Origin: a phage | DNA: 64,000 bases | Reading direction: 5' to 3' (one strand) | Sequence record: QB031382.1 | Shown: positions 921-61,894 of the stretch, in pieces | Numbering within the stretch: position 1 is the stretch's first letter | How the letters are laid out: the number at the start of each line of letters is the position of its first letter | Made by a program: the position numbers and the translations under genes | Notes under the pieces: model-generated | Database searches by the model: none | Seen by the model: the letters and a program-made list of their open reading frames with translations, nothing else | Told to the model about the DNA's origin: nothing

Positions 921-2249
921 ATGAGTAAAACCAAATTAGAACTTACCTGGGTAGGTAAAAACGAGCGCAAAAAGTTAGAGCCGCACATTTTGTTAGAAGA
1001 TTCTAGCAAATCTTACCACAGCCAGAAAGTGACCGAAAACGATATTTTTGATAATAAACTGATTTTTGGAGATAACTTATTAGCATTGAAGGCGCTAGAG
1101 CAAGAGTATGCAGGCAAAGTGAAGTGTGTTTACATAGACCCACCATTCAATACCGGGAGGGCTTTTGAGCACTACGATGATAGCCTGGAGCATTCCATTT
1201 GGCTGGGCTTAATGAGGGATAGGTTAGAAATAATTCGTAATCTTCTGAGTGATGATGGGGTAATATTCGTTCACTTAGATGGTTGCGAAATGGCGTATTT
1301 AAAAGTTTTGATGGACGAGATTTTTGGTCGTGCAAATCAGTTAAATACCATCTCGATGACCACAAATTCCCCTTCAGGATTTAAGGCAACAGGAGCCACA
1401 GTTTTCTCCACAGCAAACTTTTTGCTTGTATATGCAAAAGATCGCAACCAGAAACCGCTTAACAAAATCTATATACCTAAAGGGTATGATACAGGATATA
1501 ACAAATACCTATTAAACCCGGATGACCATTATAAAAATTGGACGTGGTGTGGTATTGCCGATGCGTTTGCAAAGGCCCATGGCTATAAAGATGCAAAAGA
1601 AGCCAAGAAAAAACTGCCTGACACATTCGATGATGAATTAGCACAATTCGCAATTGATAATGCAGAACGTGTATTTCAATCTGTTGCAATTGGTGGTGGT
1701 GCTAAAATAAAGAGAAAAGAAACTATCGAGAAGTCAAAGAAAGATAGGGATAAGGTTTATGTACATCCAAATGAGGATGTTGAAGGATTTTATATCGCAA
1801 ATGGTAGGCAAATGGTCTTTTACTCCAACAGGCTTTTGGAAATTGACGGTGAGATGCAGCCTGCGGAACTAATAACTGATGTTTGGACAGATATTAGTTG
1901 GAATGGAATAGCAAATGAAGGTGGCGTTAGTTTCAAAAATGGTAAAAAACCAGAAGCGCTTTTGAAGCGGATTTTCGAAATGTGTACGCGAGAAGGCGAT
2001 TTGGTATTGGATTCATTCGGTGGTTCGGGAACTACTGCTGCTGTAGCTCACAAAATGAAAAGACGTTGGATCTTGATCGAACTGGGTGATCATTGTCATA
2101 CCCATATTATTCCGCGCTTGGAAAAAGTGATCGATGGCGAAGATCAAGGTGGTATTTCTAAGTCTGTAAACTGGCAAGGTGGTGGTGGTGGCTTCCGTTA
2201 TTACAAACTTACCCCGGCCTTAATTGCGAAAGATATGTCTGATCAATAA
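921..2249 (+). CDS. DNA methyltransferase, amino-MTase type (N6-adenine or N4-cytosine)
   Basis: Motif IV VYIDPPFNTG followed by motif I LDSFGGSGTT; SD AAGGAGA upstream. Confidence 0.75.
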   Translation: MSKTKLELTWVGKNERKKLEPHILLEDSSKSYHSQKVTENDIFDNKLIFGDNLLALKALEQEYAGKVKCVYIDPPFNTGRAFEHYDDSLEHSIWLGLMRDRLEIIRNLLSDDGVIFVHLDGCEMAYLKVLMDEIFGRANQLNTISMTTNSPSGFKATGATVFSTANFLLVYAKDRNQKPLNKIYIPKGYDTGYNKYLLNPDDHYKNWTWCGIADAFAKAHGYKDAKEAKKKLPDTFDDELAQFAIDNAERVFQSVAIGGGAKIKRKETIEKSKKDRDKVYVHPNEDVEGFYIANGRQMVFYSNRLLEIDGEMQPAELITDVWTDISWNGIANEGGVSFKNGKKPEALLKRIFEMCTREGDLVLDSFGGSGTTAAVAHKMKRRWILIELGDHCHTHIIPRLEKVIDGEDQGGISKSVNWQGGGGGFRYYKLTPALIAKDMSDQ

Positions 2250-2262
2250 AGAGTACAATCAA

Positions 2263-2568
2263 ATGATGAAACGTTATAAACCATACACTTTTGAAATCGA
2301 TTTCGAACTTGACGATATGTTTACTGTAGAAGCTCAGGCAGTTGTCCAGTTGCCAGACCCGGAGTGCCGTGATTCTGATGTTGACTATTACGGATTTAGA
2401 CAAATTACCGATGTGCATGTTTACCACAACGGTGAAGAGGTGGACCTCCACCAACTGCCAAACGATTTGCGACACTCAATTTACAAACGTGCAGCCCGTG
2501 AACTAGAGTCCTATCTGGATGCAGCGACGACAGCAGCTGCATTTGCTGAAGAAGTGGGAGGTTTCTGA
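2263..2568 (+). CDS. hypothetical protein
   Basis: Tool ORF 2224-2568; start moved to first in-frame ATG (MMKRYKPY). Confidence 0.4.
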   Translation: MMKRYKPYTFEIDFELDDMFTVEAQAVVQLPDPECRDSDVDYYGFRQITDVHVYHNGEEVDLHQLPNDLRHSIYKRAARELESYLDAATTAAAFAEEVGGF

Positions 2569-2966
2569 TGATTACAGGTGTGAAGATTATCCAATACCAC
2601 TTAACTAAATTGGAAGATGCTGAAAAAGAGCTTGCAGAAGTTCTGAATAGCGGATATACTTTGCTATCATGCGCCTGCTCAGATACCTACGCTGTGTGGA
2701 CACTTATCCGGAAGGAAGAGCCTGCGGGGATCTTGGTGCCAAACCCTAAGATCATTAGTGAGGTGGATGACTATGCTCAGGACGGCCTGCCAGAAGGCTG
2801 GGAAGTATGGGAAGGTGGTGAAAACCCTGCACCAGGTAAGTGGGTAAAATACAAACTACGTAGCGGTGCACAGTACGCTGACTACTCTGATGACCTGGAT
2901 TGGAGTCATTCTTCACCAGGATCATCTGCAAGTTCATATGATATCATAGCTTTTCAGGAAGAATAA
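2568..2966 (+). CDS. hypothetical protein
   Basis: ATGA overlap with upstream ORF; 132 aa. Confidence 0.5.
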   Translation: MITGVKIIQYHLTKLEDAEKELAEVLNSGYTLLSCACSDTYAVWTLIRKEEPAGILVPNPKIISEVDDYAQDGLPEGWEVWEGGENPAPGKWVKYKLRSGAQYADYSDDLDWSHSSPGSSASSYDIIAFQEE

Positions 2967-2978
2967 GGAGATAGTGTT

Positions 2979-3461
2979 ATGTCAGATTTTATGTGGAAAG
3001 TAGGTTACGCAGCTCCTGAAATGTGTGAGGCTTGCTTTGTGAAAATAGGCCGCGAGGATATCGACAAAGTGATCCTTAAGTTTCGTGATGTGGCTGTGAT
3101 CGGCAACCGAGTGCTTAAGCACTTAAAGAATTTGAAGCTCACTAAAAAGAAGTTCTTCGGACTTTTCGAAGAGAAAGTTGATGCTTGGACCCATTGCATC
3201 CAGGAAGCTAAATCTCACTACAGTGCTATCGTTACTCCAGAACGGGTAGCCAAGATGGAAGGATTCATCAACAGCACAGAATTTGAGTGTCTGAAAGCTG
3301 CACTCGATAGTTATCCGAAATGCCTCAAGCACTTGGACAAGTATGTAGAAAAGGATGGGGAAATGTATCTCACCCTGGACGCATACTATGAGATGCAAGA
3401 AATTTTAAATTTAGATTTGACATTGGTATCCACCGAGTATACAATAGGTATCCGGGTTTAA
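2979..3461 (+). CDS. hypothetical protein
   Basis: SD AAGGAGA upstream; 160 aa. Confidence 0.55.
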   Translation: MSDFMWKVGYAAPEMCEACFVKIGREDIDKVILKFRDVAVIGNRVLKHLKNLKLTKKKFFGLFEEKVDAWTHCIQEAKSHYSAIVTPERVAKMEGFINSTEFECLKAALDSYPKCLKHLDKYVEKDGEMYLTLDAYYEMQEILNLDLTLVSTEYTIGIRV

Positions 3462-3466
3462 CACTA

Positions 3467-3495: not shown

Positions 3496-3512
3496 CATTA
3501 GGAGACAGCAAA

Positions 3513-4277
3513 TTGAAATTCATCTACAAAGAACACTACCACAAAGGTGTTGTGTGGAGTCTATTTGACGGGTCTGGTGGTGCAGTTATTGACTGGGCAA
3601 AAGCTGGGTACCTGTGCCTGTGCTTTAATGCAGAAGGTGCTGACCACGGCAGTTATGCAGAGGTGATAACCGATCATCCAAATATTCACTATGTGGATTA
3701 TTGGATTGACCCATGGTTCCCTCAAGAAACTTTTTGCATGTATCCAGCTCCAGACTTTATTCTTGCATTTCCTCCGTGCACGCATTTAGCGGTATCAGGA
3801 GCTGCACACTTTAAGAAAAAGCTGGCTAAGGACCCACTGATCCAGATTAACGCTGTAAAGGATGCTCGGGTTGCAGAAGAGTTGGGAGAGATTTACGATT
3901 GCCCGTGGCATGTAGAGAATCCTGTGGGTGTTATGTCCACGCTGTGGCGCAAACCTGATTACCGTTTTCACCCTTCTGATTATGGCGGGTATTTACCGGA
4001 GGATGATGTAAACCCCTGGTTTCCTGAATTTATAGCTCCACGTGATGCCTATCCAAAAATAACTTGCGGCTGGATAGGTAATGGATTTATAATCCCGGTC
4101 ACAAAACCTGTCCCGCAAATAGTTGACGCGGTTAGCGGGTATTCCATGCAACACGCCAAGCTGGGGGGAAAGAGTGCAAGAACAAAGATGATTCGAAGCC
4201 TCACACCCCGTGGCTGGGCAAAAGCTGTATTCTTAGCAAACGAGCCTGCAGTAAGGAGCAGAATTAATGGGAAGTAA
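3513..4277 (+). CDS. C5-cytosine DNA methyltransferase-like protein (small)
   Basis: Motif I WSLFDGSGG, PC motif AFPPCTHLAVSGA, ENV-like HVENPVGV, motif X-like GNGFIIPV; TTG start after SD AGGAGA, since the tool start lies inside the terminator. Confidence 0.55.
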   Translation: MKFIYKEHYHKGVVWSLFDGSGGAVIDWAKAGYLCLCFNAEGADHGSYAEVITDHPNIHYVDYWIDPWFPQETFCMYPAPDFILAFPPCTHLAVSGAAHFKKKLAKDPLIQINAVKDARVAEELGEIYDCPWHVENPVGVMSTLWRKPDYRFHPSDYGGYLPEDDVNPWFPEFIAPRDAYPKITCGWIGNGFIIPVTKPVPQIVDAVSGYSMQHAKLGGKSARTKMIRSLTPRGWAKAVFLANEPAVRSRINGK

Positions 4278-6403: not shown

Positions 6404-8827
6404 ATGAGCATGTGGTCGTTCGATTTTGAGTCATCCGGTTTGCTGGAAGACCCAGATCTTTATTATCACTGCGGTCTGTTTAAAGAGTTGAATAAGAACC
6501 GTTTTATGCTGTTCCTTCCTCTAAATGACCGCACACACTACTCCGAGGAGGATATAGAAAAGGCTAAGAACTTCATTCTGGCAAAGAAAACTCTTTATAA
6601 AGATTTTGAAGTTCGCATAGCAGATTTTTCGGAGTTGGAAGGTTGGCTTACAGGAAATTCTGACTGGTCACCAACAGCTTTGAACTGCCATAACTGCTAC
6701 AGTTATGACTTTATGCTGATGGAAAGATTATCCGGTATTCATTTTGATATGTTCCGTGATCCTAAATGCATGGGGACTATCAACGACCACCAGGTTAACC
6801 TGTTTGATACGTTGGCGATGAGCCGAATCTTATGGCCTGATCGCCCTTTACCAAAAGGTTGTCCTGACTCCGTATTCAACCCGGTTACTAAGAAAATGCA
6901 GCCTGTTGGTCCTCACGGCCTTATGGCATGGGGCTACGCCCTTGGTAACCAGAAAGTTCAAATTGATGACTGGCGCGATCTTCCGTTGTGGAAGTATGTG
7001 GATCGTGTATTCGAGGACGTTATCATCCAGGAGCTGCTCTGGAAAGAGCTGGTAGCGGAATCAAAAGGTGTATTCTACGGCAAATCTGACATGCAGAACT
7101 TTATGTACGATCCTGCCAAAGAGAAGCCGAAAGGGTTCAAGAAGATCACCTGGAAGAACGCATTGCGCCGGGGTATGCTGCAACACTTCCTGATGGAGCT
7201 GCAGGCCCGTCAGGGTGTGTATTTTGACATAGATGGGGCTATTGCTTTACGTGACCGTTGCGATGCGTGGATGAAAGAAATCGCTGATCGTGTTGAACCA
7301 CAACTACCTTTAAAAGAGCTGTCAATGTCTCAGCGGCCCAAGTTCCCTGAAAAGCCGTTTAACCAAGATGGGACAATCTCCAATAATGGTTGGAAATGGT
7401 TAAAAGATAAGCTTGGCTATCCTGTGGACATGAGCGCTTTAGAGTTCAAAGCCCCACCTAAGCGAGCATTTACCTCCACAGGGGATGTCAGTAAGATGGG
7501 GATAAAATGGTGTGAAGAGATGGGCTGTAAAGACCCTGATAAGATGGCTGATTTCTTGAGGGGCTATATTAAGGGCACTTCCACACCACAACCTTTACCT
7601 AAAGAGCTAATGGATCAGGCAATAAGTGATCTACAGCAGAAGCGAATGCCTGACTGCAAGATACCTATGAAAATCAGCAATCAGGACGACATTAAGCGAT
7701 ACCTGATTAGTGCTGGTTGGCTTCCGACAATGTGGAGAACTAAGGATGTAACTAAAGACAGCAAGAAGAAAGCTCTACCTGATGCAGATGTTGATGCACG
7801 AGTATATGCATATATGGACGAGCTTTTAGAGTCAGAGTATTGTGACCTGATTATCAACTTCTGGAACAAAACTGATGCTAAGTTCCAGACAACCGTGCAC
7901 AAGTTCCGAAGCTTTCCTAACTCCGAAAGGATTAAAAAGGAAGTATTCGGGAAAATACGTAGAAAAGCTAGGGCACTTATTACTTCTCCGCAACTGAAAG
8001 ATACGTTTGGACACCTATGCCCTAATCTTGAAAAATTGAACGGAGAGATGGCTAAAGATATCGTCTTGTGGTTATCATTGCGAAACCGCAGATCGGTACT
8101 TGATCCAATTAAGGAGGATAAGGTTGATACTGGTCTTCTTAATCACCCACGTTTGAAGATTGACCATAAGCTTCCTGCTAAAAGTTCTGGGTTAACAAAC
8201 ACTTCCCGACAGAAACACAGTATTTGTGCGAACATGCCTAAACCATCTCCTAAAGTGGTTATGGGTAAAGAGATGCGTAGTCTGTGGGGTGTTCCTCCGG
8301 GATACTTTGAGATCGGTATTGACGGGTCCAACTTAGAGCAGCTTATCGGGGCTTGGGGTGCCTTTGAGTTCGACAACGGCTTGTATTATGATGTTGTAAG
8401 TAACGGGGACGCACACCAAAACAATGCTGAGGCATATACAAAAGTAGCAGGCAGAGAGGTGTCTCGTAACGACGGTAAACCTATCACGTATGGGGTTATG
8501 TACGGGGCACAAAAAGATAAAGTTGCAGACATGCTGGATATCTCTCCAGAGTTGGGGCAAAGGGTAATCGATGCGCTTTGGGATGCCAACCCCGGTCTTA
8601 AGGGGCGTAAAGAGGATCTAGAGAAATTCTGGGAAGCAACAGGTAAGAAATTTATCTACTCTTTTGACGGTCATGCCATTTGGACCCGCTCTAAACACTC
8701 TTTGCTTAATGCATATCAGCAAAATGGCGGTGCCTCGTTGTGCGACTTGGTCGGAATCCTCATGCACCACCAAATGGTGAAGCGTGGATGGTATGATGAG
8801 GGTGTTCGTCGTATTATTTATTACCAT
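6404..8827 (+). CDS. DNA polymerase, family A, exon 1
   Basis: Exo I SFDFESSGL, motif A GIDGSNLEQL, motif B KPITYGVMYG; exon ends at the CAT (His) codon 8825-8827 before the intron. Confidence 0.85.
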
Positions 8828-9155
8828 AAATAACATTGTGGCTTCGTGCAGTGATGCACGTCGAAAACCTCTTTAATTGACGGGAAGGCTAAGTTGACTT
8901 TTACACCTAAACATGGTAAAAGCTCAATATGCTAATCCGCAGCGAAGCATCCGAGAGGATGAACGTTCAGAGACTATCGAAAGCATAGCTCCAACATAGT
9001 TTGGTGTGAAGAAGCGAGTAGAGTAGGCCAGCAAGTGCGGTCGAAATGAGAGGTGCCTTGGTAACAAGGCAGTGAGATAGTCCGATCCATACGGGAAACT
9101 GTATGGCTATGCACGTAATGGTGCGGGGTAGCTTAACGACCTACCTGAACTATTG
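8828..9155 (+). ncRNA. group I self-splicing intron (no ORF) in the DNA polymerase gene
   Basis: Core elements P AATTGACGGGAA (8875-8886), Q AATCCGCAGC (8934-8943), R GTTCAGAGACTA (8965-8976), S GAGATAGTCC (9074-9083); U before 5' splice site pairs with guide GUGG 8838-8841; G9155 precedes 3' splice site. Confidence 0.75.
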
Positions 9156-27850: not shown

Positions 27851-29482
27851 ATGCAAACGAATGTCATGGCTTATCATCTTTGTGTAAACTGTCAGGGTGT
27901 AGACTATTCAAGGTGTAAATTATTCAGATGCAAACTATCCAGGCGTAAACAGTCTATGCGGGAACAATCTGCACGTGAACAATGAAACATGAAATAATAA
28001 CAGTCGTTATTGTATCGAAAGTGTATAAGGTGTCAGATTATGGCATATTGTGTGACATTGTGTCAGACAAGTTTTTCTCCTCTTTGTCAAGTGCTGCATG
28101 TAAAATTTACAAACTGGTATGGTAGCATTTTTGCGGCCCTGTTTACATTCAGGAGTGTATGTATAACCCTTGTTGTGTGGGCGTTTAGACGTCTGGACGG
28201 TCAGAAGTCTGCAGGTTAATATCTAATCTATTGGTCGCTAACTATATCCCCACAAATAATAAGAAATGCAATTGTTATATGCGTAAACAGTAACTCATGT
28301 TATCAATCCCTGTATGTATCGCCAGTGGTGCGCATAATGGGTATTATGTTAAATTGCCCGTAATGATAACGATTCTCACAATGATAGGTATTCTCATTCA
28401 CCCGCCCAGGATAGGTTGCAAATGTTGTGCCACTGTGTGAACGGCCTCGCCTATTAATTTGCCTCACTGCCCCGATATTTGAGAATTATTATAAGAATGA
28501 GAAGTATTCCCATTTCGTCCGCCTGGCAGCACTCCTGTAGGACAAGCACAAAATCGTGGCATAACTGTACCTGTTCAGATATTTCTGGCTGACTCTTCAG
28601 GTCTGTGTGGGAAAAGCCAACCTCTCCGGCGGCGGGGAGTGGGTCAATTAAAAAATTTACGTGGTGTATGAAGCGCTCTTCAGGTAAGGCAGGTATTATG
28701 GGATGAATCACTCTTCAGGTGATGATATTTGTAGGTGTGATATTTGCTGGAAAGCCAGATATGACGGGACTCCCGGCGGGGCAGGGGTAGTACAGACAGG
28801 GAAAATGTGGAGAATGTGGTGGGTAAATTGATCAAGCAGGTAGAGTATGGAATATGTTACAGGTATGTTAAATATGGAGGTAAGATATTTGTAAGATTTG
28901 TGTGTAAAATCAAAGACTTAAGTAGTGTTGTGGTATTTTCTATAAATAATTCAAGTTTAATAGGGAATATTTGCCTCTATCCACTTTGTATGGTAACTAT
29001 ATTCTAATTGAATTGGTTTACAAGTGTATATAAAGTATACAAATTAAAGATACAAGAAACCCCCCTCCCCCTTCGGCTACCATTCACCTTTTCCTCTGAC
29101 TGGTACTTAAACACTTATTCAGACTCTTCAGGTTATCACTCATATATCATATGGCAGTGACTGGTGTCCTCCGGCCCCTCTTTCGTCACCCGTCCGCTTC
29201 GCCATGCTAATGCCATAGCTAACTGTTCGGTTGTTCACCCTGTTCACTCAGGTGTATCTCCATACCCCTTCAAACCGAAGAGAACAGAAAACCCGAATTA
29301 CTCGGTAAAAGAAAAGAGAAGAACTTAATTTTATCAGGATAGGCAAGAATGTCAAGGCATGACTGCTCACTAAACAAGCAAACAGTCATGTGTGGGAGGT
29401 AAGTGATTGTGGTGGTAGGAAATTTAGTTGAAAGATGTGTTATAGGTGCTTCCAGCACTTTAGCCTGGCAGCTAATTGTGTG

Positions 29483-29698
29483 TCAGTCCAGCGGTTCATC
29501 CTCTACTTCACTGAAATCAATGTTCAGGGTCTCTTCCCAACCATCGATCTCAGCACAAGAGTGGAGTTCTTTAGGGTTTACTCCCAAAGCCTCAGCAACA
29601 GAGTCTATATTTAACACCTCTGGCAGGTATGATTCATCGAATTCAAGGTAAATCAGGCCACGAGTGTTGTCAGCTCCACCAAATATTTCTATCTTCAT
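29483..29698 (-). CDS. hypothetical acidic protein
   Basis: Tool ORF; last gene of minus-strand block. Confidence 0.4.
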   Translation of the reverse strand: MKIEIFGGADNTRGLIYLEFDESYLPEVLNIDSVAEALGVNPKELHSCAEIDGWEETLNIDFSEVEDEPLD

Positions 29699-29818
29699 AA
29701 AATCTCCTCTGGAAATGAGAGTGTGAACAGGGTTATACGTTCCAATGCGCAGGAATTTATATACGTTTGCCTCTTCAGGCCATGCTTTAGCATGATAAAC
29801 TTATGTGGGCTCGGTGCT

Positions 29819-30121
29819 TCATAGTCTGCCACCTCTGAACTCTTCGTGCTCGGGCAGGATAGAGAACCAGATGTCTAAGATGTCTTCCCACGTCAGGTCA
29901 TCAGCCTCAGGGTCTAAGTTTTCCTCTACGGTCACTTCTTCAGATGTCTCTTCAGATGCATGTGTGTTGGTCATGTTCCACCCGTTAGTATTCCGGCAAC
30001 AGCCGCTATGGACGTAATGATCATCAGGATCACCACTAAAACTTCGGACAATGTTTTCATTGCGTATTCCATATTCTTCAAACGATGTGAGGATACTATC
30101 ACAGGAGCGGTAATGTGTCAA
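29819..30121 (-). CDS. hypothetical protein
   Basis: Tool ORF; start not refined. Confidence 0.35.
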   Translation of the reverse strand: MTHYRSCDSILTSFEEYGIRNENIVRSFSGDPDDHYVHSGCCRNTNGWNMTNTHASEETSEEVTVEENLDPEADDLTWEDILDIWFSILPEHEEFRGGRL

Positions 30122-30333
30122 CAGAAACGCCGCGAGGGTTGGTTAAAATCCGAGCGTATGGTGATTTGGGTCAAAACGGACGTGCGTTCTCGCTACGCTC
30201 GAAATAGAGAGTTGTTTACAGGCCGCCCTTAAACGCTCTGTAATAAGATTATCCATCTAAGGTATGCAATCGTGCACCAGATAAAGAAAAGGACGCCACA
30301 GAGCGTCCTAGGTGCCTTAAATTTGATATTTTG

Positions 30334-30645
30334 CTATACCCATGAGGGCTTGTCCAGGTTGGAGTAACTGAAAGGGGTCAAAAGGTGACTGTCAAAATCT
30401 TTCAAACTGTCCAGATCTTTTTCCTCGTCCTGACACCATCTGTGTCTACATTTATTGTTGTAGTGCATGGAATGCATAGCGTTCTGCAACTTAATAGGCA
30501 CAAGTGATTCAGGAGTAGATAGAATTGTTGGGTATGCCAGAACTATCTCAAACAATGGAAACACATCGAAACTAAAGTCTACCTCTGCAGAGGTTGATGG
30601 CATATAGGAGTATTTAGCCGCCCTTGTAGACATAATCCACCTCAC
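30334..30645 (-). CDS. hypothetical protein
   Basis: Tool ORF abutting upstream ORF. Confidence 0.4.
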   Translation of the reverse strand: MRWIMSTRAAKYSYMPSTSAEVDFSFDVFPLFEIVLAYPTILSTPESLVPIKLQNAMHSMHYNNKCRHRWCQDEEKDLDSLKDFDSHLLTPFSYSNLDKPSWV

Positions 30646-30872
30646 ACAGGTTTGATAATACCTTTACCGAATAACTCTTCGTATCTAATCTTATCCGGAT
30701 CCCACTCCTGGATAATTTCGAAGACAATATCTAACCCAGGGATAATCACTTCTCCAGTATCAAGTTTGGCAAGAACAAAACCAGAAGGCTGAATGGTTTC
30801 CCAGTTGCGACGATTGGAATAGAAGACCTCAAAAATATCACCGACCTCGATCTGTTGATCAAGATGGTTCAA
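30642..30872 (-). CDS. hypothetical protein
   Basis: Tool ORF. Confidence 0.45.
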   Translation of the reverse strand: MNHLDQQIEVGDIFEVFYSNRRNWETIQPSGFVLAKLDTGEVIIPGLDIVFEIIQEWDPDKIRYEELFGKGIIKPV

Positions 30873-39370: not shown

Positions 39371-39898
39371 CTATATCTCCTGGTTCAAACTGTTAAGAAA
39401 GGATACCCTGTCTTCGCTATTTTTCTCTGTGATGTACCCTCCAAACATGGAAAGAATCACATGCTTCAAGTAATCTTTTTCTGGGTCGCTTAGATGATTG
39501 CGTGGCTTTATTTCCACATCATGGTAGTCATACAATCCACAATCATGATACCCCCAGTATCGACACACCTCAATACTGATCGGGAGTTTTTTGTCACACG
39601 AAACTTTCCAACGGGTTACGTTGTTACCAGGAGATAAATCCTCTCCCACCTTCACGAATGACAAATCATAATTCATAAACTTTTCGTACAGTTTAAGTAC
39701 AAAACCTTCTACCTGTGGAGAAACACCAGCCACTAGCTGGGCGTATCTATATTTACTTTCAATAATTTTTCGGCGCTTTGCTGTAAGGTTTATTGCAGCA
39801 ATTTGACTCTCCGAGTATCTCCAAGGCTTATATATAAATGCTTTCGGGTCTTTATCGCCATAAAAATCTTTCCAATCAACTAGCAGCATACCTGTCAC
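39371..39898 (-). CDS. hypothetical protein
   Basis: Tool ORF, 175 aa. Confidence 0.5.
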   Translation of the reverse strand: MTGMLLVDWKDFYGDKDPKAFIYKPWRYSESQIAAINLTAKRRKIIESKYRYAQLVAGVSPQVEGFVLKLYEKFMNYDLSFVKVGEDLSPGNNVTRWKVSCDKKLPISIEVCRYWGYHDCGLYDYHDVEIKPRNHLSDPEKDYLKHVILSMFGGYITEKNSEDRVSFLNSLNQEI

Positions 39899-40839: not shown

Positions 40840-41124
40840 CTACCAGGTCACTGTCAAGTAGGCAACCGTGTTATTTTTCTCCGGAGAGATGCCAACAACA
40901 TCCACCTGCAGACCTCCTGCCCTCAAATCCCCAACGATGTGTGGGAAGTAGTCTGAGAGGTGCGATGGGAGATTTATCGAAAATCCGCATCCCAGAAAGC
41001 CTGCTAACGCTTTATTTTGTATCTCCCCTACAATCGCATCATAAATGGAGTTAAGCTCGTCAGGAAGAGTTACAGGACGTTTTAGCGCTAACTGGTGCAA
41101 CTTGTCCTTAGCACTCATTTTCAT
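40840..41124 (-). CDS. hypothetical protein
   Basis: Start moved to ATG overlapping MTase stop. Confidence 0.45.
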   Translation of the reverse strand: MKMSAKDKLHQLALKRPVTLPDELNSIYDAIVGEIQNKALAGFLGCGFSINLPSHLSDYFPHIVGDLRAGGLQVDVVGISPEKNNTVAYLTVTW

Positions 41125-41654
41125 TTCAGGTCTACCTCTGGAGGTGCCAACCACATAAATGGCGGCAGGTCTAAACGGTTCTTCTTGTCCCACACAAAAT
41201 ATGCATATGCTTGCCCGTCAGTTCTGCCATTCGATTGGAATGATGGACGCTTAGATATTGTGATCACAGTGGTAGGTGCATTATCAAGCCACCATTCAAA
41301 TCTGGCTTTGCTTTCCAGAAAATTAAGACGCAAAAGCATAATAACTACGTCAGCATCTTTCAACGCCTTGTCTACAAACTCACGAGCCAGGCTGTACGGT
41401 GGGTTGGTGATAATACAGTCAACATGGTTGTATTCTGTATTCAGATAGTCAACACCTTCTTGGATTTCTCCCCATGCAGATCCTAATGGCATACGGGAGT
41501 AGAACACACCTGAGGCGCTGTTCCTGCAAGGCTCTAGGTAGGTCCAGTCTTCTGGGAACGGAATAAGGTCATACAGCCCTTCTGCACACCACTCCGGTGT
41601 CACATACTCGTCGTAAGCGTTACGTTGTTCATCAGGTTTTCTAGCACAAGTCAT
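41121..41654 (-). CDS. small N6-adenine DNA methyltransferase (phage Dam-like)
   Basis: Motif IV ITNPPYSLA; motif I-like YLEPCRNSASG; only 177 aa. Confidence 0.65.
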   Translation of the reverse strand: MTCARKPDEQRNAYDEYVTPEWCAEGLYDLIPFPEDWTYLEPCRNSASGVFYSRMPLGSAWGEIQEGVDYLNTEYNHVDCIITNPPYSLAREFVDKALKDADVVIMLLRLNFLESKARFEWWLDNAPTTVITISKRPSFQSNGRTDGQAYAYFVWDKKNRLDLPPFMWLAPPEVDLK

Positions 41655-45243: not shown

Positions 45244-46206
45244 TCAGCAACCACAACTTCCGTAGTGCTTAACCCGTTCTATAACCTCCGCTTGCTTACC
45301 TTTATTGTAAGGACGGGAGTTTGGACTGGACAGATACCCGGATACACGTCTAATCACACTGATCGTTCCCTCTTCATGGTTTCCACACTCTGGGCATACA
45401 AAGCCTTTAGCTGTTGCACTGAACTCACCAGAGAATCCACACTTAAGACATTTATCCACAGGCTGGTTAATACCAAAATACATAATGTGTTTATATCCGA
45501 AATCAACAAGAGCTTCCAAAGCATCTAAGTTGTTTTTCAGATTTGGTGTCTCTATGTACCCAATGTTGCCACCAGAGGAGATCATAGCAAAACCTTCCTC
45601 ATACTTCCACTTATCAAAAGGCGAGCTATTGATCCATACTGGCTGATGGAAACTGTTGGTGAGGTATTCATGCTCGTGCTTCAACACTTCTGGGTATTCA
45701 CGATCCAGACAGGTTGCAGCTTTATAGCATAAACTCTCAGAAGGTGTGCCGTACAAGCTAAATGCTAGTCCACTTTCCTTCTTGTATCGCTCACAAGCAT
45801 CTTTCATGTGCTGAAGGATTCCAAGAGCTAAAGCCTTGTCACCCTCTCTGCCCAAAATCTGACAGGTTTCATACACACCAATATACCCAATACTGATGGA
45901 AGCGTACCCGTCATAGAAGAGTTTATCGATACTCTCTTCAGGATCCAGGCGAGCAAGAGCTCCTTCACACCACATGATAGGGTTATGCCCTGCCTTTGTT
46001 CCTTTTAGACGGTTAACTCTTACAAGGTGAGCCTCATATGCCAAATCCAAATATTCGTCAAGAACTGCAAAGAAATCAACACCTTCCGTTTTAGCTTTTG
46101 CCGCAATCATTGGTAGGTTAAGGCTAACAACACCCAAGTTGAATCTGCCAAGGTATTTCTCCTCGCCTGTTACAGGATCGCTATATTTCGATAAGAAACT
46201 TCTACA
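45244..46206 (-). CDS. nrdD: anaerobic ribonucleotide reductase NrdD, exon 2
   Basis: Begins CRSFLSKYSDP; C-terminal zinc ribbon and glycyl-radical motif RRVSGYLSS. Confidence 0.8.
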   Translation of the reverse strand, partial: CRSFLSKYSDPVTGEEKYLGRFNLGVVSLNLPMIAAKAKTEGVDFFAVLDEYLDLAYEAHLVRVNRLKGTKAGHNPIMWCEGALARLDPEESIDKLFYDGYASISIGYIGVYETCQILGREGDKALALGILQHMKDACERYKKESGLAFSLYGTPSESLCYKAATCLDREYPEVLKHEHEYLTNSFHQPVWINSSPFDKWKYEEGFAMISSGGNIGYIETPNLKNNLDALEALVDFGYKHIMYFGINQPVDKCLKCGFSGEFSATAKGFVCPECGNHEEGTISVIRRVSGYLSSPNSRPYNKGKQAEVIERVKHYGSCGC

Positions 46207-46968
46207 CATTATGTTCAAGGTGGTTCGCAAGGCCACCCCCGCACCATTACGTGCTGCTGCATGTCCCCATGCAGATCAGACTATATCTTCACACTTAGTG
46301 TGTCTACCATTTCGAGTGTCATCAGCTTACACCCTACACCGCTACATTCATCACGGTTAGTCGTTAGGCATTTCGTAACAGAACTCGTAATCATAGTTAT
46401 TAGGTGCACCACGTTTCAGGATAGCAGATATTCTTTTTCTATCTATTCCTAAAACATCAGCACAACATCTCAGACTCTTAAAGTGAATAACCACACCAGT
46501 TAATTTGTGGGTGGCTTTCACCCCGTGACATCTTGTGTAAAAAGCATAACAGTTGTTGTCGTATCCTTCTTGAGTATTGTCTGGGCAAGCTCCCCACTCA
46601 AGGTTGTATACGCTGTTATCTTTCCTGTTGTCACCTTTGTGCTTAACATATGGTAAATTGTCTGGATTTGGTAAAAACGCTTCAGCAACAAGTCTGTGAA
46701 CCCTTAGGCAAACAGTCTTTTTGTTCTTGCGTATCCTGACAAGACGGTAACCTGTGTTTATCTCTTCCCACGAATGAATAATTCTTTCATTTTCGTATCG
46801 GGTGCAATAAACATTGCCCATCTCGTCAATTTCATAACCTTCAAAATCACGAATTTGTTTTCTCATTTCAGGACTCCTCTTAGTCAGGAGTTCTGTTACG
46901 TTTAGCACGGGATTGTCCGTTCTGGAGTTTCCCCGTTTAGATAGATTTTACATGAGCAGTTATAGTTT
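46207..46968 (-). ncRNA. group I intron in nrdD carrying an HNH endonuclease ORF
   Basis: U before 5' splice site, G before 3' splice site; P-, Q-, R-like elements at 46880-46940; S element AAGATATAGTC at 46279-46289; 18-nt GCACGTAATGGTGCGGGG (46237-46254) identical to polymerase intron. Confidence 0.6.
46357..46866 (-). CDS. HNH homing endonuclease (intron-encoded)
   Basis: HRLVAEAFLPNP...KHKGDNRKDN...NLEW; start at ATG after SD AAGAGGAG. Confidence 0.75.
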   Translation of the reverse strand: MRKQIRDFEGYEIDEMGNVYCTRYENERIIHSWEEINTGYRLVRIRKNKKTVCLRVHRLVAEAFLPNPDNLPYVKHKGDNRKDNSVYNLEWGACPDNTQEGYDNNCYAFYTRCHGVKATHKLTGVVIHFKSLRCCADVLGIDRKRISAILKRGAPNNYDYEFCYEMPND

Positions 46969-48129
46969 ACCCATGCTTGTTACTTTGCCGTCTGTTGAAC
47001 CTGTCACTTTACGATTTAGCGGAACAGAAACAAAGTCAGGATAAATCCGCTCTGCAGAGCATTCTAAGGCCAATCGTTTCAAATCATAGTTAGGATCCCC
47101 AGGGTTCATGTTGACACCCTCCTCTAAGAAGAACAACACTTTAGGGAACACAGGTGTGATCCGTTCTTCACCAAGACCCATTTTGTGAACTTTCAAGTAG
47201 TTTTTGGTAATCATTCTACCAAAGACCGAAGTATCCAGCCCTAAACTTAATGTGATGAATGGGGTTTGCCCGTTGACAGAAGTTAACGTATTGATTTGGT
47301 AGAGCAAAGTTTGCATACTATCAAACACGTCTTTATCTGTCATTTGCATTGCAACAGTCTCAGCATCTGGCAACCAATGTTCCTGACAAAATTTAAGGTT
47401 CTTCTCATAAGTTGCTTCAGCATACTGTGCCAAATAATGATCAATATGACTCATGGTCTGACCGCCATATTGAGCACTAGCTACTGCACTAGAGATTTGG
47501 CTAAGGATTGTTGTTGCAACCCCTATTGACTTCGGCTTACTGACATGGGCGTTGCCAATGTTGAATCCGTTTTCCAGCATATCCGGATAATTTACCAAAC
47601 AACAGTTTGTTAACGGACTGATCAGGTAGTCAAGATCATGCACATGGATGAAGCCTTTGTTGTGCTCTTCAGAGACACGGTCTGGCAGGATCTGTGTTGA
47701 TGCAAGATGTTTGCTAAGGATGCCTGCAAGCAGGTCACGATGAGTATGCACATGATTAGTAGGCTTATTTGCGTTTTCTTTTGTAAATTCATCACAAGTA
47801 CGATCCAAGAATCCGCTAATATCTGCAAGCAGTTTTCCACCTGCCTCTCTGTTATTATCTCTTGTCTGTCTATACTGGATGTATCCTCTGGCTGCACATT
47901 TTAAACCCATATCCATAAGAGCATCTTCAACAAGGATATGGATATTTTTTACAGAGATCGTGCACTGGTCGGTTGGCAGATTGTTGGCAACAACTTCATT
48001 AACCGCGCAGGCAATCCGGTAAGCTTCTTCTTCAGTATGTCCAGACTCAAGTAAGGCGGACTCTGCCGCCTTGATCACCTTAATTCCGTTATAAAACTCT
48101 TCTCTACCGTCCCGTTTTACAACTTTCAC
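46969..48129 (-). CDS. nrdD: anaerobic ribonucleotide reductase NrdD, exon 1
   Basis: N-terminal ATP-cone-like region; ends ...KVTSMG before intron; in-frame stop two codons into intron. Confidence 0.8.
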
Positions 48130-55252: not shown

Positions 55253-55711
55253 TTAGAAGTTTGTTTTTACACGTCTCTTTTCATCTACTTCGTTGTTAGC
55301 TAAAAGCGTTACAAAGTCTGTAAAACGAACATGAAGAACTCTTTTCTTATCCAGGTATCCTAAAGCCACACCTGAGAAATTTAGCATTAAAGGGGCTAAA
55401 GAAGCTCTAGCACTGAGATGCTGCTGTTCAACTCTTCCAACACCCTTAGTATAAGAAGGGTTGAGATTGTAAGTTCTGAATCCAAGTTTTGTTGGAGCTT
55501 TAGAATTAAAAACAACTTTATAACGTTTCTTACTCAGCTTATGTTCCAGAATAAGCATTCCCTTTTCGCCACGGATAAGCTGAAAATCTGTAAAATGCTC
55601 TTTTAAGACAAAAGGTAGTGCCAGCCCCATAGCCTGTCCCCTTTGCACAGCTGTCTCACCAAAAGCCTTTGCATCAGTAAGCTCTTTAGTCAAGTCTATA
55701 CTTTTGATCAT
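55253..55711 (-). CDS. hypothetical protein
   Basis: Tool ORF. Confidence 0.45.
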   Translation of the reverse strand: MIKSIDLTKELTDAKAFGETAVQRGQAMGLALPFVLKEHFTDFQLIRGEKGMLILEHKLSKKRYKVVFNSKAPTKLGFRTYNLNPSYTKGVGRVEQQHLSARASLAPLMLNFSGVALGYLDKKRVLHVRFTDFVTLLANNEVDEKRRVKTNF

Positions 55712-56492
55712 ACCTGGTCTCCAAAATGTATTGTAGTTCTTTCTTGCCTATACTCTTCATTCCAGCAGTCTTACCTGCTTCTTCTTGAAAAGAAGAATAG
55801 CATTCAGCAAACACTCTGTCAACACCATCAACTAAAGATTTTATGAAATATGTTGATTCTTCAGATTTTGGGTCATCCTCCCCCAATACTTTTCCAGCAT
55901 TATACCCGACACGTCTTATGCAGAAGTCGTAGTCATCTGGTGTGCTAAAAGAAAATAACTTATTCTCCCCAATCTCTACAGGATTCCTATTGCACACCTT
56001 TTTCTCCCAAATTTGGAAAACACATGGCACGTCATAAGGTTTGCCGTTAAGTAAAAACGAGTTCTTGGGGCACCTTTCGCTGTAAATAAGGTGCATCGAC
56101 ATGTCAAGCCTGTTTGCAAAAAATATTTTTTCAAATGTCCGTGGCAAGATGAAGGCTATAGCCCCACCAGGCTCTAGCAATGATGCACAGTGGTTAAAGA
56201 ACTTGCAAGCTAAAGACGAATTTTTGCCGAATGGAGGATTGCCTATGAAGACATCAGCCTTAGGGTACACCTCTAAGAAGTTTGCCTTAATACACGGTGT
56301 TGGGCCTTCAAATTCAGGATCTGGTACCAAATCGTACGACAGTATCTCTGAAAATAGTTTTGAAAAAGAACCCTTTCCAGCAGAAGGCTCAACGTATGCA
56401 CAATTCCCATACCTAACTTTTACTTTACCAACAAGATATTCTGCATACTCAGGGTCTGTGTAATATTTGTCGTTGGACTCTTTCTTGCTCAA
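55686..56492 (-). CDS. N6-adenine DNA methyltransferase
   Basis: Motif I VEPSAGKGSF and motif IV FIGNPPFGKN. Confidence 0.7.
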   Translation of the reverse strand: MSKKESNDKYYTDPEYAEYLVGKVKVRYGNCAYVEPSAGKGSFSKLFSEILSYDLVPDPEFEGPTPCIKANFLEVYPKADVFIGNPPFGKNSSLACKFFNHCASLLEPGGAIAFILPRTFEKIFFANRLDMSMHLIYSERCPKNSFLLNGKPYDVPCVFQIWEKKVCNRNPVEIGENKLFSFSTPDDYDFCIRRVGYNAGKVLGEDDPKSEESTYFIKSLVDGVDRVFAECYSSFQEEAGKTAGMKSIGKKELQYILETRYDQKYRLD

Positions 56493-57522: not shown

Positions 57523-57534
57523 CGTTAAGATTCC

Positions 57535-60349: not shown

Positions 60350-60364
60350 AGACCCTCCTGTTAG

Positions 60365-60649
60365 TTATTCTGCAAGATGGTTGGATGCTGTAATGGAATG
60401 CATCATCACTCTCTGCAATAAGTGACTCAACATCCCAATACTTTTCAAAAAGGAACGGATTAGACCCCAGTGGTGGGTTATTTTCATCAAGGAGTCTGGT
60501 ATCAGATAGCCACAGATCTTAATTACATCGCCAGGTTGAATTGTATTTTCATGAAGGTTGCTTGCCTTCTTCAGGATCATACCTTTATGATTCTCGTTTG
60601 CATACAACTGGACAATATCTTTATCTTCAACAATAAAAATTTTAAGCAT
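60365..60649 (-). CDS. hypothetical protein
   Basis: Tool ORF; C-terminal half low-complexity. Confidence 0.35.
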   Translation of the reverse strand: MLKIFIVEDKDIVQLYANENHKGMILKKASNLHENTIQPGDVIKICGYLIPDSLMKITHHWGLIRSFLKSIGMLSHLLQRVMMHSITASNHLAE

Positions 60650-60708
60650 ACCTAGTTCTCCTGGTTTATAAATATCTGACTGATAATATCAGATTAATAA
60701 CACTTTTG

Positions 60709-61005
60709 TCAAGACTTTTTAGTCTTCCTTGGAGAGCTTTTTGTTGATCTTTTCCTTTTGTGGTAGATTCCAAGTGCAGCGTTTTCTTGGGCGCACGTTT
60801 TAACAGTTCTCAGACAAGAGCTTTCAGCTTTAGGCAGGTTTAGCTCCCACCAACCAAGCCAGTAAAGTTCTGATTCAGACAACTGCTCTGATTCAGCCTT
60901 TCTATACAATGATTGCATACCTCTAATAATGTCGTCCAGAGGTGTATCGAATACAAAAGCTGTCTTATCAAATTTCTCTTTTACAGGTTTCTTAGCCACA
61001 CTCAC
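60709..61005 (-). CDS. hypothetical basic protein
   Basis: Tool ORF. Confidence 0.4.
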   Translation of the reverse strand: MSVAKKPVKEKFDKTAFVFDTPLDDIIRGMQSLYRKAESEQLSESELYWLGWWELNLPKAESSCLRTVKTCAQENAALGIYHKRKRSTKSSPRKTKKS

Positions 61006-61894
61006 CTCTCACACAATCATCCACTGACTTAATGAACTCTTGCACCCAAAGTGCCCCTATTTGCGGAACTATAGCGTTACCGAAGCCTTTGTGGCGAGAC
61101 AATCCCATTGGGGTGGATAGCCCATCAACCAACAAGGGAATGCCGGGTTCAGGAAGTTTACGCCATTTTCCGTCTCGGCATAGACACTGTCCTGTATGCT
61201 CCCACACCCGTAATACATCCTCACCTGCTCCCACAGATTCCCAGGACTTAATGACTTCCTGCCAGTTGCTAAGCGTTGTTGCTTGCGCCTCTCCATCGCC
61301 TCCTGAGATCTGCACCCTACCTGAGTTACCGTAGGGGTTAACCATGTTGCTAACTGCCCCGAAGTAAAGTCGTTCGCGGCGGTGCGGGGCGTTGAGGATT
61401 GCAGCATTAAGTATGGAAGCCCCGAAGCTGTAACCAGCGTTTTCCATTTCATCCTGCATATCGTCGAGCCATCCAGATTCAGTCGCTTTTGCAACCTGCT
61501 CTCCAAACATGAACTCAGGTCTAAGCTGTTTAACGATCCGGAGGTATGTTGGTGCGAGATGTCTTGGGTCAAATTTTCCACGTTGCTTACCTGCCTGAGA
61601 GAAAGGTTGGCAGCACGGAGATCCTGTGCATACCGACCAAGTTTCTGGAATGCCAGCAAGTTTCAAGGCCAAAGGCCATCCACCTATGCCAGCGAAGAAG
61701 TGCCACTGTGTGAAACCTTTAAGATCTTCTACAGTAACCTCTGTGATAGAACGATCATCAACCTCGCCTTGAGGAAGTAGCCCTAAAGATATTAGGTTCT
61801 TCAACCAAGCAACGGCATCTTTATCATTATCGTTATAGTATACCACACTCAACTCTCCAAATACTGATGTATCCAAGAAAAGTCTGTTTCCCAT
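60992..61894 (-). CDS. DNA cytosine-5 methyltransferase (compact)
   Basis: Motif I HFFAGIGGW, IV SPCCQPFSQAG, VI FGEQV, VIII ILNAPHRRERLY, X GNAIVPQI. Confidence 0.8.
   Translation of the reverse strand: MGNRLFLDTSVFGELSVVYYNDNDKDAVAWLKNLISLGLLPQGEVDDRSITEVTVEDLKGFTQWHFFAGIGGWPLALKLAGIPETWSVCTGSPCCQPFSQAGKQRGKFDPRHLAPTYLRIVKQLRPEFMFGEQVAKATESGWLDDMQDEMENAGYSFGASILNAAILNAPHRRERLYFGAVSNMVNPYGNSGRVQISGGDGEAQATTLSNWQEVIKSWESVGAGEDVLRVWEHTGQCLCRDGKWRKLPEPGIPLLVDGLSTPMGLSRHKGFGNAIVPQIGALWVQEFIKSVDDCVRGECG

Follow-up and report, generated by a model that had tools for sequence, protein, structure and literature searches.

Five orphan DNA methyltransferase homologues and their likely motif-specific self-methylation in an rV5/FV3-like Escherichia coli phage

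Analysis of a 64,000-nucleotide stretch of phage DNA (sequence record QB031382.1, hereafter the window) revealed five stand-alone DNA methyltransferase (MTase) genes, designated M1 to M5. Their presence is a real but ordinary finding. We consider it likely that these five orphan, SAM-dependent enzymes methylate a small number of short motifs in the phage DNA and do not form a general shield.

Gene set and genomic setting

The window represents an rV5/FV3-like E. coli phage (Vequintavirus) sharing 94-98% identity with FV3 and the BASEL phages Bas48-54, and all five genes are already named as MTases in the GenBank records of these relatives. In agreement with a preliminary description of this DNA, the five open reading frames (ORFs) were found on the strands it had assigned, and profile, PHROG, motif, and fold searches identified every one of them as a DNA MTase homologue. 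The three chemistries proposed therein had to be reduced to two predicted ones, i.e., N6-adenine (three genes) and C5-cytosine (two genes) methylation, with no sign of N4-cytosine methylation.

Each MTase gene possesses its own ribosome binding site (RBS), and terminator-like hairpins precede three of them. Phage records with at least 90% identity amounted to 119 for M3, 121 for M4, and 117 for M2, compared with about 88 for M1 and four for M5. M3, M4, and M2 are thus core genes, strictly conserved in the genus and with homologues in further large myoviruses, Phapecoctavirus among them, while M1 is variable and M5 a rare accessory gene. Within Bas51 (Escherichia phage WalterGehring), orthologues of M1 to M4 share 95-99% identity with the window proteins and M5 is missing; in Bas49, the M1 gene is frameshifted.

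Within the reach of hidden Markov models (HMMs) and the annotation of relatives, the proposed lack of a cognate restriction endonuclease was confirmed. Profile searches with restriction endonuclease models gave no match among the neighbors of the MTase genes, i.e., the adjacent endonuclease of a restriction-modification (RM) system was not found. These neighbors encode a PIF1-like helicase, an HNH endonuclease, and small proteins without functional annotation. Only homing, HNH, and repair nucleases were recognized in the window, and the nucleases of the complete annotated Bas51 genome are restricted to homing endonucleases, EndoVII, and exonucleases, with no restriction enzyme among them.

N6-adenine methyltransferases and the GATC and GTAC marks

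The strongest functional evidence concerns M3 (41121-41654, minus strand; 177 aa), assigned as a GATC-specific N6-adenine MTase on the basis of orthology and its match to phrog_799 (8e-67). It carries a degenerate motif I (EPCRNSASG, nt 41508-41534) followed by NPPY (residues 84-87, nt 41394-41405). M3 had no match to Pfam MethyltransfD12 and remained below the curated thresholds of PF05869 (Dam; 19.2 vs 28.1 bits) and TIGR01712 (16.1 vs 97), as did its match to Pfam EcoRI_methylase. By analogy, it would share the product, m6A at GATC, with the Dam enzymes of E. coli and T4 (alpha-class, MethyltransfD12) and with the phage Dam families PF05869/TIGR01712, but it differs from them in the missing D12 match, the order of motif I before motif IV, and its size of only 177 aa.

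The Bas51 protein bas51_0176, encoded at the same position adjoining a ClpP-like protease gene, shares 99.4% identity with M3 along the entire length of 177 residues, D69, D79, T83, and NPPY among them. It was described as a GATC m6A MTase triggering the retrons Asa1 and Squ1 (Nakamura et al. 2025, PMC12548924), and no other Bas51 MTase combines D69, D79, and T83, the positions altered in retron escapers. Nanopore sequencing of wild-type Bas51, evaluated for 6mA calls only, yielded 1405 m6A calls at GATC, 509 at GTAC, and 576 at other positions (PMC12548924, S4 table). According to our count, the Bas51 genome contains 703 GATC and 258 GTAC sites, corresponding to 1406 and 516 adenines, so that nearly all adenines of both motifs are methylated (1405/1406 and 509/516 called). 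In the T83P mutant, the calls changed to 35 at GATC, 511 at GTAC, and 349 at other positions (PMC12548924), the GATC mark thus being lost from essentially all 703 sites of the virion DNA. While the Bas51 orthologue was measured, M3 originates from another isolate and is known here from its sequence; given their near-identity, M3 would be expected to write m6A at every GATC, as proven for the orthologue.

Since the T83P mutation leaves the GTAC calls at 511 compared with 509, the GTAC mark of Bas51 comes from a phage enzyme other than the M3 orthologue. We somewhat favor M4 as this enzyme, it being gamma-class, full-length Type II-like, and a distant paralogue of M3, although the choice over M1 is a guess; M1 retains an appreciable but smaller chance.

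M4 (55686-56492, minus strand; 268 aa) starts with a TTG codon preceded by a GGAGG RBS and is assigned to the gamma-class N6-adenine MTases by PADLOC, PHROG, and its predicted fold. Motif I (EPSAGKGSF, residues 35-43, nt 56364-56390) precedes motif IV (NPPF, residues 85-88, nt 56229-56240), and a beta-rich domain forms the C-terminus. The protein matches the REBASE-derived Type II model MTase_II of PADLOC (PDLC03255) over its full length (8.9e-33) as well as phrog_5172 (2.4e-124), and its N-terminal half is common to phrog_799 (1.4e-13), the family of the proven GATC enzyme. Its AlphaFold2 model (pLDDT 93.5) showed TrmN as top match, followed by M.TaqI, M.BseCI, and CamA (Foldseek E = 1e-7 to 1e-6 for these three). 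M4 thereby resembles M.TaqI-type gamma-class Type II MTases in its EPxxGxG motif followed by NPPF and a Rossmann core that can be superposed on M.TaqI, M.BseCI, and CamA; unlike them, it is much smaller and has a different C-terminal domain, and the sequence similarity is non-significant when taken alone (E = 0.03-0.07). Two loci of bacterial M4 homologues were examined: at one (L007), an adjacent small ORF reached a marginal REase_II score of 6e-4, and at the other (L009), the neighboring ORFs had no match.

It is conceivable, albeit unlikely, that at least one of the five proteins is no DNA MTase, with M4 acting on RNA (tRNA or rRNA m6A) or M2 being inactive or serving another substrate. For M4, the tRNA/rRNA m6A MTases TrmN, the METTL5-like Ta1320 (the best PDB sequence match of its profile, 2.9e-4), and PH1948 are among the nearest relatives by structure or sequence, and some homologues are labeled as “predicted RNA methylase”. 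The full-length Type II match and the N-terminal half shared with the GATC enzyme family argue against this assumption, and the GTAC m6A in DNA requires some enzyme. For M2, the lack of a curated HMM match stands against its retained invariant PPC nucleophile, ENP motif, SAM loop, and DNMT3-like predicted fold (see below).

M1 (921-2249, plus strand; 442 aa) was classified by Pfam, PADLOC, and its motifs as an orphan Type III Mod-like, beta-class N6-adenine DNA MTase. It contains the N6_N4_Mtase domain (PF01555, 9.3e-42), with motif IV (DPPF, residues 73-76, nt 1137-1148) ahead of motif I (FGGSGT, residues 366-371, nt 2016-2033), and residues 1-439 align to positions 2-443 of the 575 positions of the PADLOC profile MTase_III (PDLC03636, 1.4e-201). 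Its PDB relatives include the Mod subunit 6k0w and EcoP15I Mod (4zcf). The succession of DPPF, target-recognition region, and FxGxG is shared with Type III Mod proteins (EcoP15I 4zcf, 6k0w, Mbo45V 7dsu), which in contrast are longer (570-640 aa) and accompanied by a Res gene. No Res subunit, i.e., an SF2 helicase with a PD-(D/E)xK nuclease, was found among the neighbors of M1, and the downstream ORFs of 114-160 aa gave no nuclease match in profile searches. The 3' end of a helicase gene is located upstream (84-521, plus strand); it was rejected as a Type III Res gene because it is PIF1/RecD-like SF1, its full-length Bas51 orthologue (456 aa) matching Pfam PIF1 at 1.1e-32 and lacking a ResIII or nuclease domain. 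Based on these sequence features, M1 may be a Type III Mod whose Res partner was lost. Its probable product is m6A at an asymmetric motif, which would be hidden in the published “other” class of Bas51 calls.

Two predicted C5-cytosine methyltransferase lineages

Judged from their sequences, M2 and M5 are two unrelated lineages of C5-cytosine MTases. M2 (3513-4277, plus strand; 254 aa) starts at the previously given position 3513, a TTG preceded by an AGGAGA RBS. The window protein scored below the PF00145 threshold and reached none of the curated HMM thresholds, with no match in Pfam, NCBIfam, or PADLOC. It belongs to phrog_757, annotated as “DNA methyltransferase” (1.2e-86), and contains motif I (FDGSGG, nt 3564-3581), the catalytic PPCT (nt 3771-3782), and ENPV (nt 3915-3926). 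A set of 46 M2 homologues retains PPC and ENP throughout and FDGSG almost throughout, and 8 of the 46 match PF00145 (best 1.3e-6). The best-ranked 40 Foldseek matches of its AlphaFold2 model (pLDDT 88.7) in the PDB were all catalytic-domain entries of DNMT3A/3B/3C (E = 4e-7 to 1.5e-5). M2 thus combines the catalytic PC, the ENV-type motif, the SAM loop (FxGxG), and the predicted fold of canonical C5-MTases and the DNMT3 catalytic domain, but deviates from canonical enzymes such as M.HhaI and M.HaeIII by its length of 254 aa, a minimal target-recognition region, and the sub-threshold PF00145 score.

The gene of M5, formerly placed at 60992-61894 (minus strand), was confirmed, but its start had to be shifted. 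An ATG at 61894 would open a frame of 300 aa; the most likely start is GTG 61846, preceded by the RBS GGAGAG and consistent with homologues opening with MNYYNEWD, resulting in a protein of 284 aa (60992-61846). M5 matches PF00145 at 4.2e-20 (72.9 bits, cut-off 22), and its best PDB relative is M.HhaI (1.8e-12). The full motif set ascribed to M5 is indeed present, but not in the canonical linear order from I to X. The N-terminal 45 residues hold motif II (YYNDNDK, nt 61820-61840; NEWDK-like) and motif III (DDRSITEV, nt 61736-61759; D-x-SITEV), followed by motif I (FFAGIGGW, nt 61676-61699), motif IV with the PC nucleophile (SPCCQPFS, nt 61598-61621), motif VI (GEQV, nt 61493-61504), motif VIII (HRRERLYF, nt 61361-61384), and motif X (GFGNAIVPQ, nt 61061-61087). 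The family alignment and a de-permutation test support this assignment: once motif I was placed first, the protein aligned contiguously to PF00145 and scored 95.4 instead of 72.4 bits, compared with 71.4-77.0 bits for shuffled or reversed controls (n = 11).

Hence, M5 shares motifs I, IV (PC), VI, VIII, and X with M.HhaI and M.HaeIII (PF00145) and differs from them in the motif I block located between III and IV and in EQV instead of ENV in motif VI. Non-canonical motif order also characterizes the circularly permuted C5-MTases M.BssHII, M.Alw26I, M2.Eco31I, M.Esp3I, and M2.BsaI; unlike these type H enzymes, in which motifs IX-X are placed ahead of I-VIII, M5 exhibits an internal transposition (II-III-I-IV) and no circular permutation. 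Among permuted C5-MTases, a REBASE survey from 2018 reported type H only (PMC5944983), and the order of the M5 family is absent from its list. Directly upstream of M5, an HNH (homing-type) endonuclease is encoded (61849-62313, minus strand; phrog_5200 “HNH endonuclease”, 1.4e-71). It was rejected as the cognate restriction enzyme of M5, since Bas51 carries the same gene and lacks M5.

Both M2 and M5 appear catalytically intact by sequence and, for M2, modeled fold, and would add 5mC at short motifs. Their activity is predicted from motifs and fold, as the base calling of the Bas51 study covered 6mA only.

Extent and purpose of self-methylation

The preliminary description had suggested self-methylation for broad protection against host restriction. 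Methylation itself is substantiated by the approximately 100% m6A at GATC and GTAC in Bas51, while the breadth of protection is contradicted by the reported exceptional sensitivity of Vequintaviruses to RM systems. A shield in which five MTases jointly mask the genome from most host restriction systems could draw on the number of enzymes, the two fully methylated 4-bp motifs of Bas51, and the missing cognate nuclease. We nevertheless regard it as very improbable: only a handful of short motifs carry the marks, GTAC remains depleted across the window (observed/expected 0.66, z = -4.7), and broad protection is largely refuted already for the EcoRI, EcoRV, EcoKI, EcoP1I, and EcoCFT systems. The BASEL panel contained no GATC- or GTAC-cutting system.

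Even less credible, and close to dismissal, is the second suggestion, i.e., that the MTases participate in nucleotide-level base modification together with the ribonucleotide reductase, ThyX, and kinase cluster, comparable to phages with hmC or hypermodified bases. M3, M4, and M5 are indeed located within or adjoining the nucleotide-metabolism module, which otherwise comprises ribonucleotide reductases, glutaredoxin, and PhoH. Yet the phage has an ordinary ThyX as its thymidylate synthase (Thy1 at 1.1e-9), the annotation of the complete Bas51 genome lists no hydroxymethylase, glycosyltransferase, or DpdA-like gene, the DNA is efficiently cut by ordinary restriction systems, and the standard 6mA model sufficed for nanopore base-calling. 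All five proteins moreover belong to SAM-using MTase families acting on polymerized DNA. Given the RM sensitivity of Vequintaviruses and the plain ThyX, neither broad anti-restriction nor hypermodification is supported.

A further alternative concerns the purpose of the marks only and is compatible with motif-specific self-methylation: they may serve phage-internal roles (replication or packaging signals, evasion of host mismatch repair, gene timing) instead of defense evasion. We assign it a minor, although not negligible, probability. M3 repeats the specificity of the host Dam, a specificity that offers protection from very few restriction systems of E. coli, the MTase genes lie inside replication modules, and the conservation of M3, M4, and M2 described above points in the same direction. 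Conversely, the Bas51 loss-of-function mutants D69G, D79G, and T83P of the M3 orthologue plate like wild type on a retron-free host (PMC12548924), showing that GATC methylation is dispensable in the laboratory. Host Dam is no substitute for the Bas51 GATC enzyme, which is toxic if expressed alone (PMC12548924).

In the favored reading of motif-specific self-methylation, the five enzymes, encoded within early/middle replication and nucleotide-metabolism modules, would act on newly replicated phage DNA. Protection would be limited to restriction enzymes blocked by the written marks, and the GATC MTase would also be costly to the phage, because retron defense systems sense it.

Orphan methyltransferase genes in a vequintavirus genome

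By megablast, the window belongs to Vequintavirus, a genus of rV5/FV3-like E. coli myoviruses, with 94-98% identity across its entire length to FV3, VB-EcoM-WM, EPFV3-03/2025 and the BASEL phages Bas48, Bas49, Bas51 and Bas54. Dozens of unannotated "Campylobacter phage" records (GenBank MG0656xx; among them C12, D#, A140, and A13b) share ~94% identity with this E. coli vequintavirus, which points to contamination with coliphage or to wrong labels in the submission concerned. All five methyltransferase (MTase) genes of the preliminary description, here M1 to M5, are present, and the ORF check together with profile, PHROGs, and fold matches identified each of them as a DNA-methyltransferase homologue. 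The three chemistries ascribed to them reduce to two predicted ones, N6-adenine for M1, M3, and M4 and C5-cytosine for M2 and M5, with no sign of N4-cytosine methylation.

On the plus strand, M1 (921-2249, 442 aa) matches Pfam N6_N4_Mtase (9.3e-42) and the PADLOC Type III MTase model (1.4e-201); its relatives among solved structures are the Type III Mod subunits 6k0w and EcoP15I Mod 4zcf. The motif order is that of the beta class, DPPF at residues 73-76 being followed by FGGSGT at 366-371. In Bas49 EmilHeitz (locus L001, 921-2244), a frameshift near codon 42 splits the orthologue; its annotation begins at an internal start past the DPPF motif, so that the protein is probably inactive. A small ORF directly 3' of M1 (2224-2568, plus strand) belongs to phrog_4240 (unknown function) and shows a weak secondary match to phrog_1573, annotated "DNA methyltransferase" (4.9e-5).

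The start proposed earlier for M2 (3513-4277, plus strand, 254 aa) was retained, a TTG at 3513 with an upstream AGGAGA ribosome-binding site. M2 returned zero matches against Pfam, NCBIfam, and PADLOC and falls into phrog_757 "DNA methyltransferase" (1.2e-86). Its family comprises >3500 clusters and is found in 1504 phage records; one of these phages, Tls, has the gene annotated as dcm. The PPC nucleophile and ENP do not vary among 46 homologues, the FDGSG loop hardly varies, and 8 of the 46 reach the Pfam C5-cytosine MTase family PF00145. The AlphaFold2 model of M2 (pLDDT 88.7) has the catalytic domains of DNMT3A/3B as top PDB matches (E = 4e-7). M2 and M5 are not close paralogues, since hhalign of the two family alignments aligned motif IV alone, and without significance.

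On the minus strand, M3 (41121-41654, 177 aa) carries NPPY at residues 84-87 and belongs to phrog_799 (8e-67), staying below threshold for both Pfam Dam (PF05869) and EcoRI_methylase. M4 (55686-56492, minus strand, 268 aa), read from a TTG behind a GGAGG ribosome-binding site, contains EPSAGKGSF and then NPPF. PADLOC Type II MTase models cover its full length (8.9e-33), and its N-terminal half likewise has a match to phrog_799, the M3 family (1.4e-13). The M4 model (pLDDT 93.5) superposes on TrmN, M.TaqI, M.BseCI, and CamA. Single-sequence PDB searches with M2, M3, and M4 gave nothing significant, and profiles brought marginal gain.

The earlier observation that no cognate restriction endonuclease accompanies these genes held: no Res or nuclease partner was found near M1-M5 or in the annotated Bas51 genome, which makes all five orphan MTases. 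Searches of Pfam, PADLOC, and PHROGs with the small ORFs on either side of each MTase gave no nuclease match, bar the HNH beside M5, and the only nucleases in the full Bas51 annotation are homing endonucleases, EndoVII, and exonucleases. In bacterial neighbourhoods of M4 homologues, one downstream 199-aa ORF showed a marginal REase_II match (6e-4) and the other ORFs none. Two candidate partners were rejected. The helicase upstream of M1, considered as a Res subunit, is a PIF1/RecD-like SF1 protein without Res or nuclease domain; a mini R-M pair of M5 and the adjoining HNH homing-type endonuclease was discarded because Bas51 has the HNH and no M5.

At an identity of at least 90%, M2, M3, and M4 occur in 117, 119, and 121 phage records, respectively, compared with ~88 for M1 and 4 for M5 (also only 4 at an identity of at least 95%). 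These record counts place M2, M3, and M4 in the core gene set of the genus and mark M1 and M5 as accessory. Homologues of M3 (47-66%) are found in Phapecoctavirus and other large enterobacterial myoviruses and those of M4 (~53%) in Phapecoctavirus-type phages; the next relatives of M1 (~38%) are in Campylobacter phages. M5 is otherwise <60% identical to proteins of Dhillonvirus, many siphoviruses, and prophages. About one vequintavirus record in four lacks M1. The vequintavirus records bearing M5 include HdK5 and Bas48, and its presence is polymorphic (window 60992-62313): in Bas51 (locus L006, 29104-29833), the flanking 98-aa ORF adjoins the HNH endonuclease. MTases in all vequintaviruses have been noted by Olsen et al., and the BASEL GenBank entries list "putative N6 adenine methyltransferase" three times, "Dcm-like C5 cytosine methyltransferase", and "putative C5-cytosine-methyltransferase".

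Adenine methylation at GATC and GTAC

The closest experimentally studied relative is Bas51 (Escherichia phage WalterGehring, MZ501111), from which Nakamura et al. 2025 isolated mutants escaping retrons Asa1 and Squ1; the rebuilt substitutions D69G, D79G, and T83P abolished defence (PMC12548924). Among the three annotated N6A MTases of Bas51, bas51_0176 alone combines D69, D79, and T83, and M3 is 99.4% identical to it. Nanopore 6mA calls in wild-type Bas51 amounted to 1405 at GATC, 509 at GTAC, and 576 "other", compared with 35, 511, and 349 in the T83P mutant (PMC12548924, S4 table). We counted 703 GATC sites (1406 adenines) and 258 GTAC sites (516 adenines) in the Bas51 genome; measured against these adenines, the published calls show that both motifs are essentially 100% methylated. 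Because T83P strips the GATC calls and bas51_0176 alone carries the three residues, M3 is assigned, by way of this orthologue, as the GATC enzyme. In Bas51, the lost GATC methylation is not made good by host Dam. Expressed alone in E. coli, the Bas51 GATC enzyme is toxic (PMC12548924).

The GTAC writer is a second phage enzyme, and Nakamura et al. 2025 assigned none to this motif (PMC12548924). This retron paper was the only one retrieved when the literature was searched for methylomes of vequintaviruses or for an enzyme assigned to GTAC; methylation is not discussed in the rV5 genome paper. As Bas51 encodes M1, M2, M3, and M4 and lacks M5, the candidates are M1 and M4. We lean toward M4, which matches Type II models over its full length, has the M.TaqI-type architecture characteristic of enzymes that recognize 4-bp palindromes, and is distantly paralogous to the GATC enzyme. 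M1 is the other candidate; as a Type III Mod derivative, it would be expected to recognize an asymmetric motif methylated on one strand, and such a motif could make up part of the 349 residual "other" calls. Less probably, M4 acts on RNA, since its model is matched just as well by TrmN and METTL5-like proteins. A Foldseek comparison of this model with viral models gave unnamed or uncharacterised top matches, and the named ones were generic methyltransferases offering no clue to specificity.

The window contains 353 GATC and 127 GTAC sites. GTAC is under-represented (127 observed vs 193 expected, observed/expected 0.66, z = -4.7), CTAG (0.55) and ACGT (0.76) are also low, and GATC is at expectation (1.05). 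GTAC is scarce here although it is fully m6A-methylated in Bas51.

Motif order in the C5-cytosine methyltransferase M5

M5 (60992-61846, minus strand) matches PF00145 (4.2e-20) and M.HhaI (1.8e-12). Its start had been placed at ATG 61894, which is probably not the true one; most likely translation begins at GTG 61846, yielding 284 aa, since GGAGAG lies 6 nt upstream, homologues begin with MNYYNEWD, and the BASEL annotation likewise gives 284 aa. The full motif set reported for M5 is indeed complete, but it does not follow the canonical order. In M5 and 29 sampled homologues, the N-terminus YYNEWDK...WLxxLI...VD(E/D)RSITEV is followed by the block HFFAGIGGW-PLAL-LAG and directly thereafter by GSPPCQPFS. 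The first block resembles what we take to be motifs II-III of M.HhaI (NEWDK around E40, GDITQV around D60), a numbering consistent with the HMMER-aligned residues. HMMER aligned residues 53-82 of M5 with 4-33 of M.HhaI and residues 82-186 with 69-176, skipping M.HhaI 34-68.

In a de-permutation test, the motif I block of M5 was placed ahead of the N-terminal 45 residues and the sequence rescored against PF00145 and a second profile, TIGR00675. Against PF00145, the rearranged sequence scored 95.4 bits, up from 72.4 for the native one, in a single contiguous alignment (profile positions 6-164), compared with 71.4-77.0 bits in 11 controls with the segment shuffled or reversed and 72.5 bits with the segment deleted. 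For TIGR00675, the score increased from 55.6 to 78.2 bits (shuffled control 63.8). These scores and controls establish the order II-III-I-IV as real at the level of sequence. It extends over the M5 family (>7000 clusters at 90% identity, phage and prophage), throughout which motif VI is invariantly EQV, not ENV.

A 2018 REBASE survey reported the M.BssHII type as the sole natural C5-MTase permutation (PMC5944983). In that type, motifs IX-X precede motif I, whereas M5 has motif I/helix A between III and IV, a non-circular rearrangement. We found no published description of the order II-III-I-IV in C5-MTases in the literature searched. The transposition would affect the half of the Rossmann fold that binds SAM: residues 1-45 (284-aa numbering) would provide strands 2-3, and residues 46-68 strand 1 and helix A, of an otherwise normal seven-stranded class I MTase sheet. 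When a 46-column profile was built from the N-terminus of M5, it proved too short and retrieved no C5-MTase from the PDB. That the M5 family has an undescribed topology (II-III-I-IV...X), that M4 writes GTAC, and that M2 and M5 add 5mC is, taken jointly, a tentative reading to which we give slightly less than even weight.

Genome context and role of the methyltransferases

The plus strand up to ~30 kb carries a replication module (helicase, primase/helicase, DNA polymerase) and the minus strand past ~30 kb a nucleotide-metabolism and recombination module (ribonucleotide reductases, ThyX, exonucleases, ligase, endolysin). Near 30 kb (window about 28000-31000), the genes change orientation and the GC skew changes sign, with the cumulative skew maximum at 28-30 kb; at this switch the two early/middle gene blocks, divergently oriented, meet. 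The window is free of tRNA genes. The DNA polymerase gene is interrupted by a group I intron (8818-9105, plus strand; Rfam RF00028, 75.6 bits, full model) without a homing endonuclease ORF, which the relatives' copy has. The anaerobic ribonucleotide reductase gene nrdD (45244-48129, minus strand) looks split: ORF 45244-46236 matches the C-terminal half of NrdD (phrog_4218, 3e-142), and ORF 46960-48129 corresponds to the relatives' annotated nrdD by position alone. The 183-aa ORF between them (46357-46908) probably encodes an intron-borne endonuclease, following the Bas51 annotation; Rfam detected no intron there at the gathering threshold. ORF 39371-39898 (minus strand) is syntenic with the "putative glycosidase" bas51_0171 of Bas51, the second trigger of retron Asa1. 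At only 51% identity, it is a diverged allele of that gene; Pfam and PADLOC gave no match for it.

Regarding the role of the MTases, the suggestion of broad self-methylation against restriction stands in its first half, as m6A at GATC and GTAC in Bas51 is real, but "broad" protection is contradicted. The other proposal, base modification linked to the nucleotide-metabolism cluster, is not borne out: the thymidylate synthase is ThyX, the cluster is standard, the DNA is readily restricted, and no hypermodification genes are annotated in the Bas51 genome. Bas51 with loss of M3 function plates normally on a retron-free host (PMC12548924), so GATC methylation is not needed under laboratory conditions, and in hosts that carry retrons it is a liability.

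The preliminary description thus reads these genes correctly; they had been annotated before and in part characterised, and its mechanistic suggestions are right only in part. Multiple orphan MTases are a recognised, annotated trait of vequintaviruses, so that the finding matters little as stated, and one of the five already has a published specificity and phenotype. The useful remainder is a set of predicted enzyme-to-motif assignments (M4 or M1 for GTAC, M1 for an asymmetric "other" motif, M2 and M5 for 5mC), and residual value lies in the GTAC enzyme, the predicted 5mC marks of M2 and M5, and the motif order of M5. For phage-therapy genomics, a caution follows that the number of MTase genes is no predictor of restriction resistance. 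If a structure confirms the motif order of M5, the catalogue of permitted C5-MTase topologies would expand.
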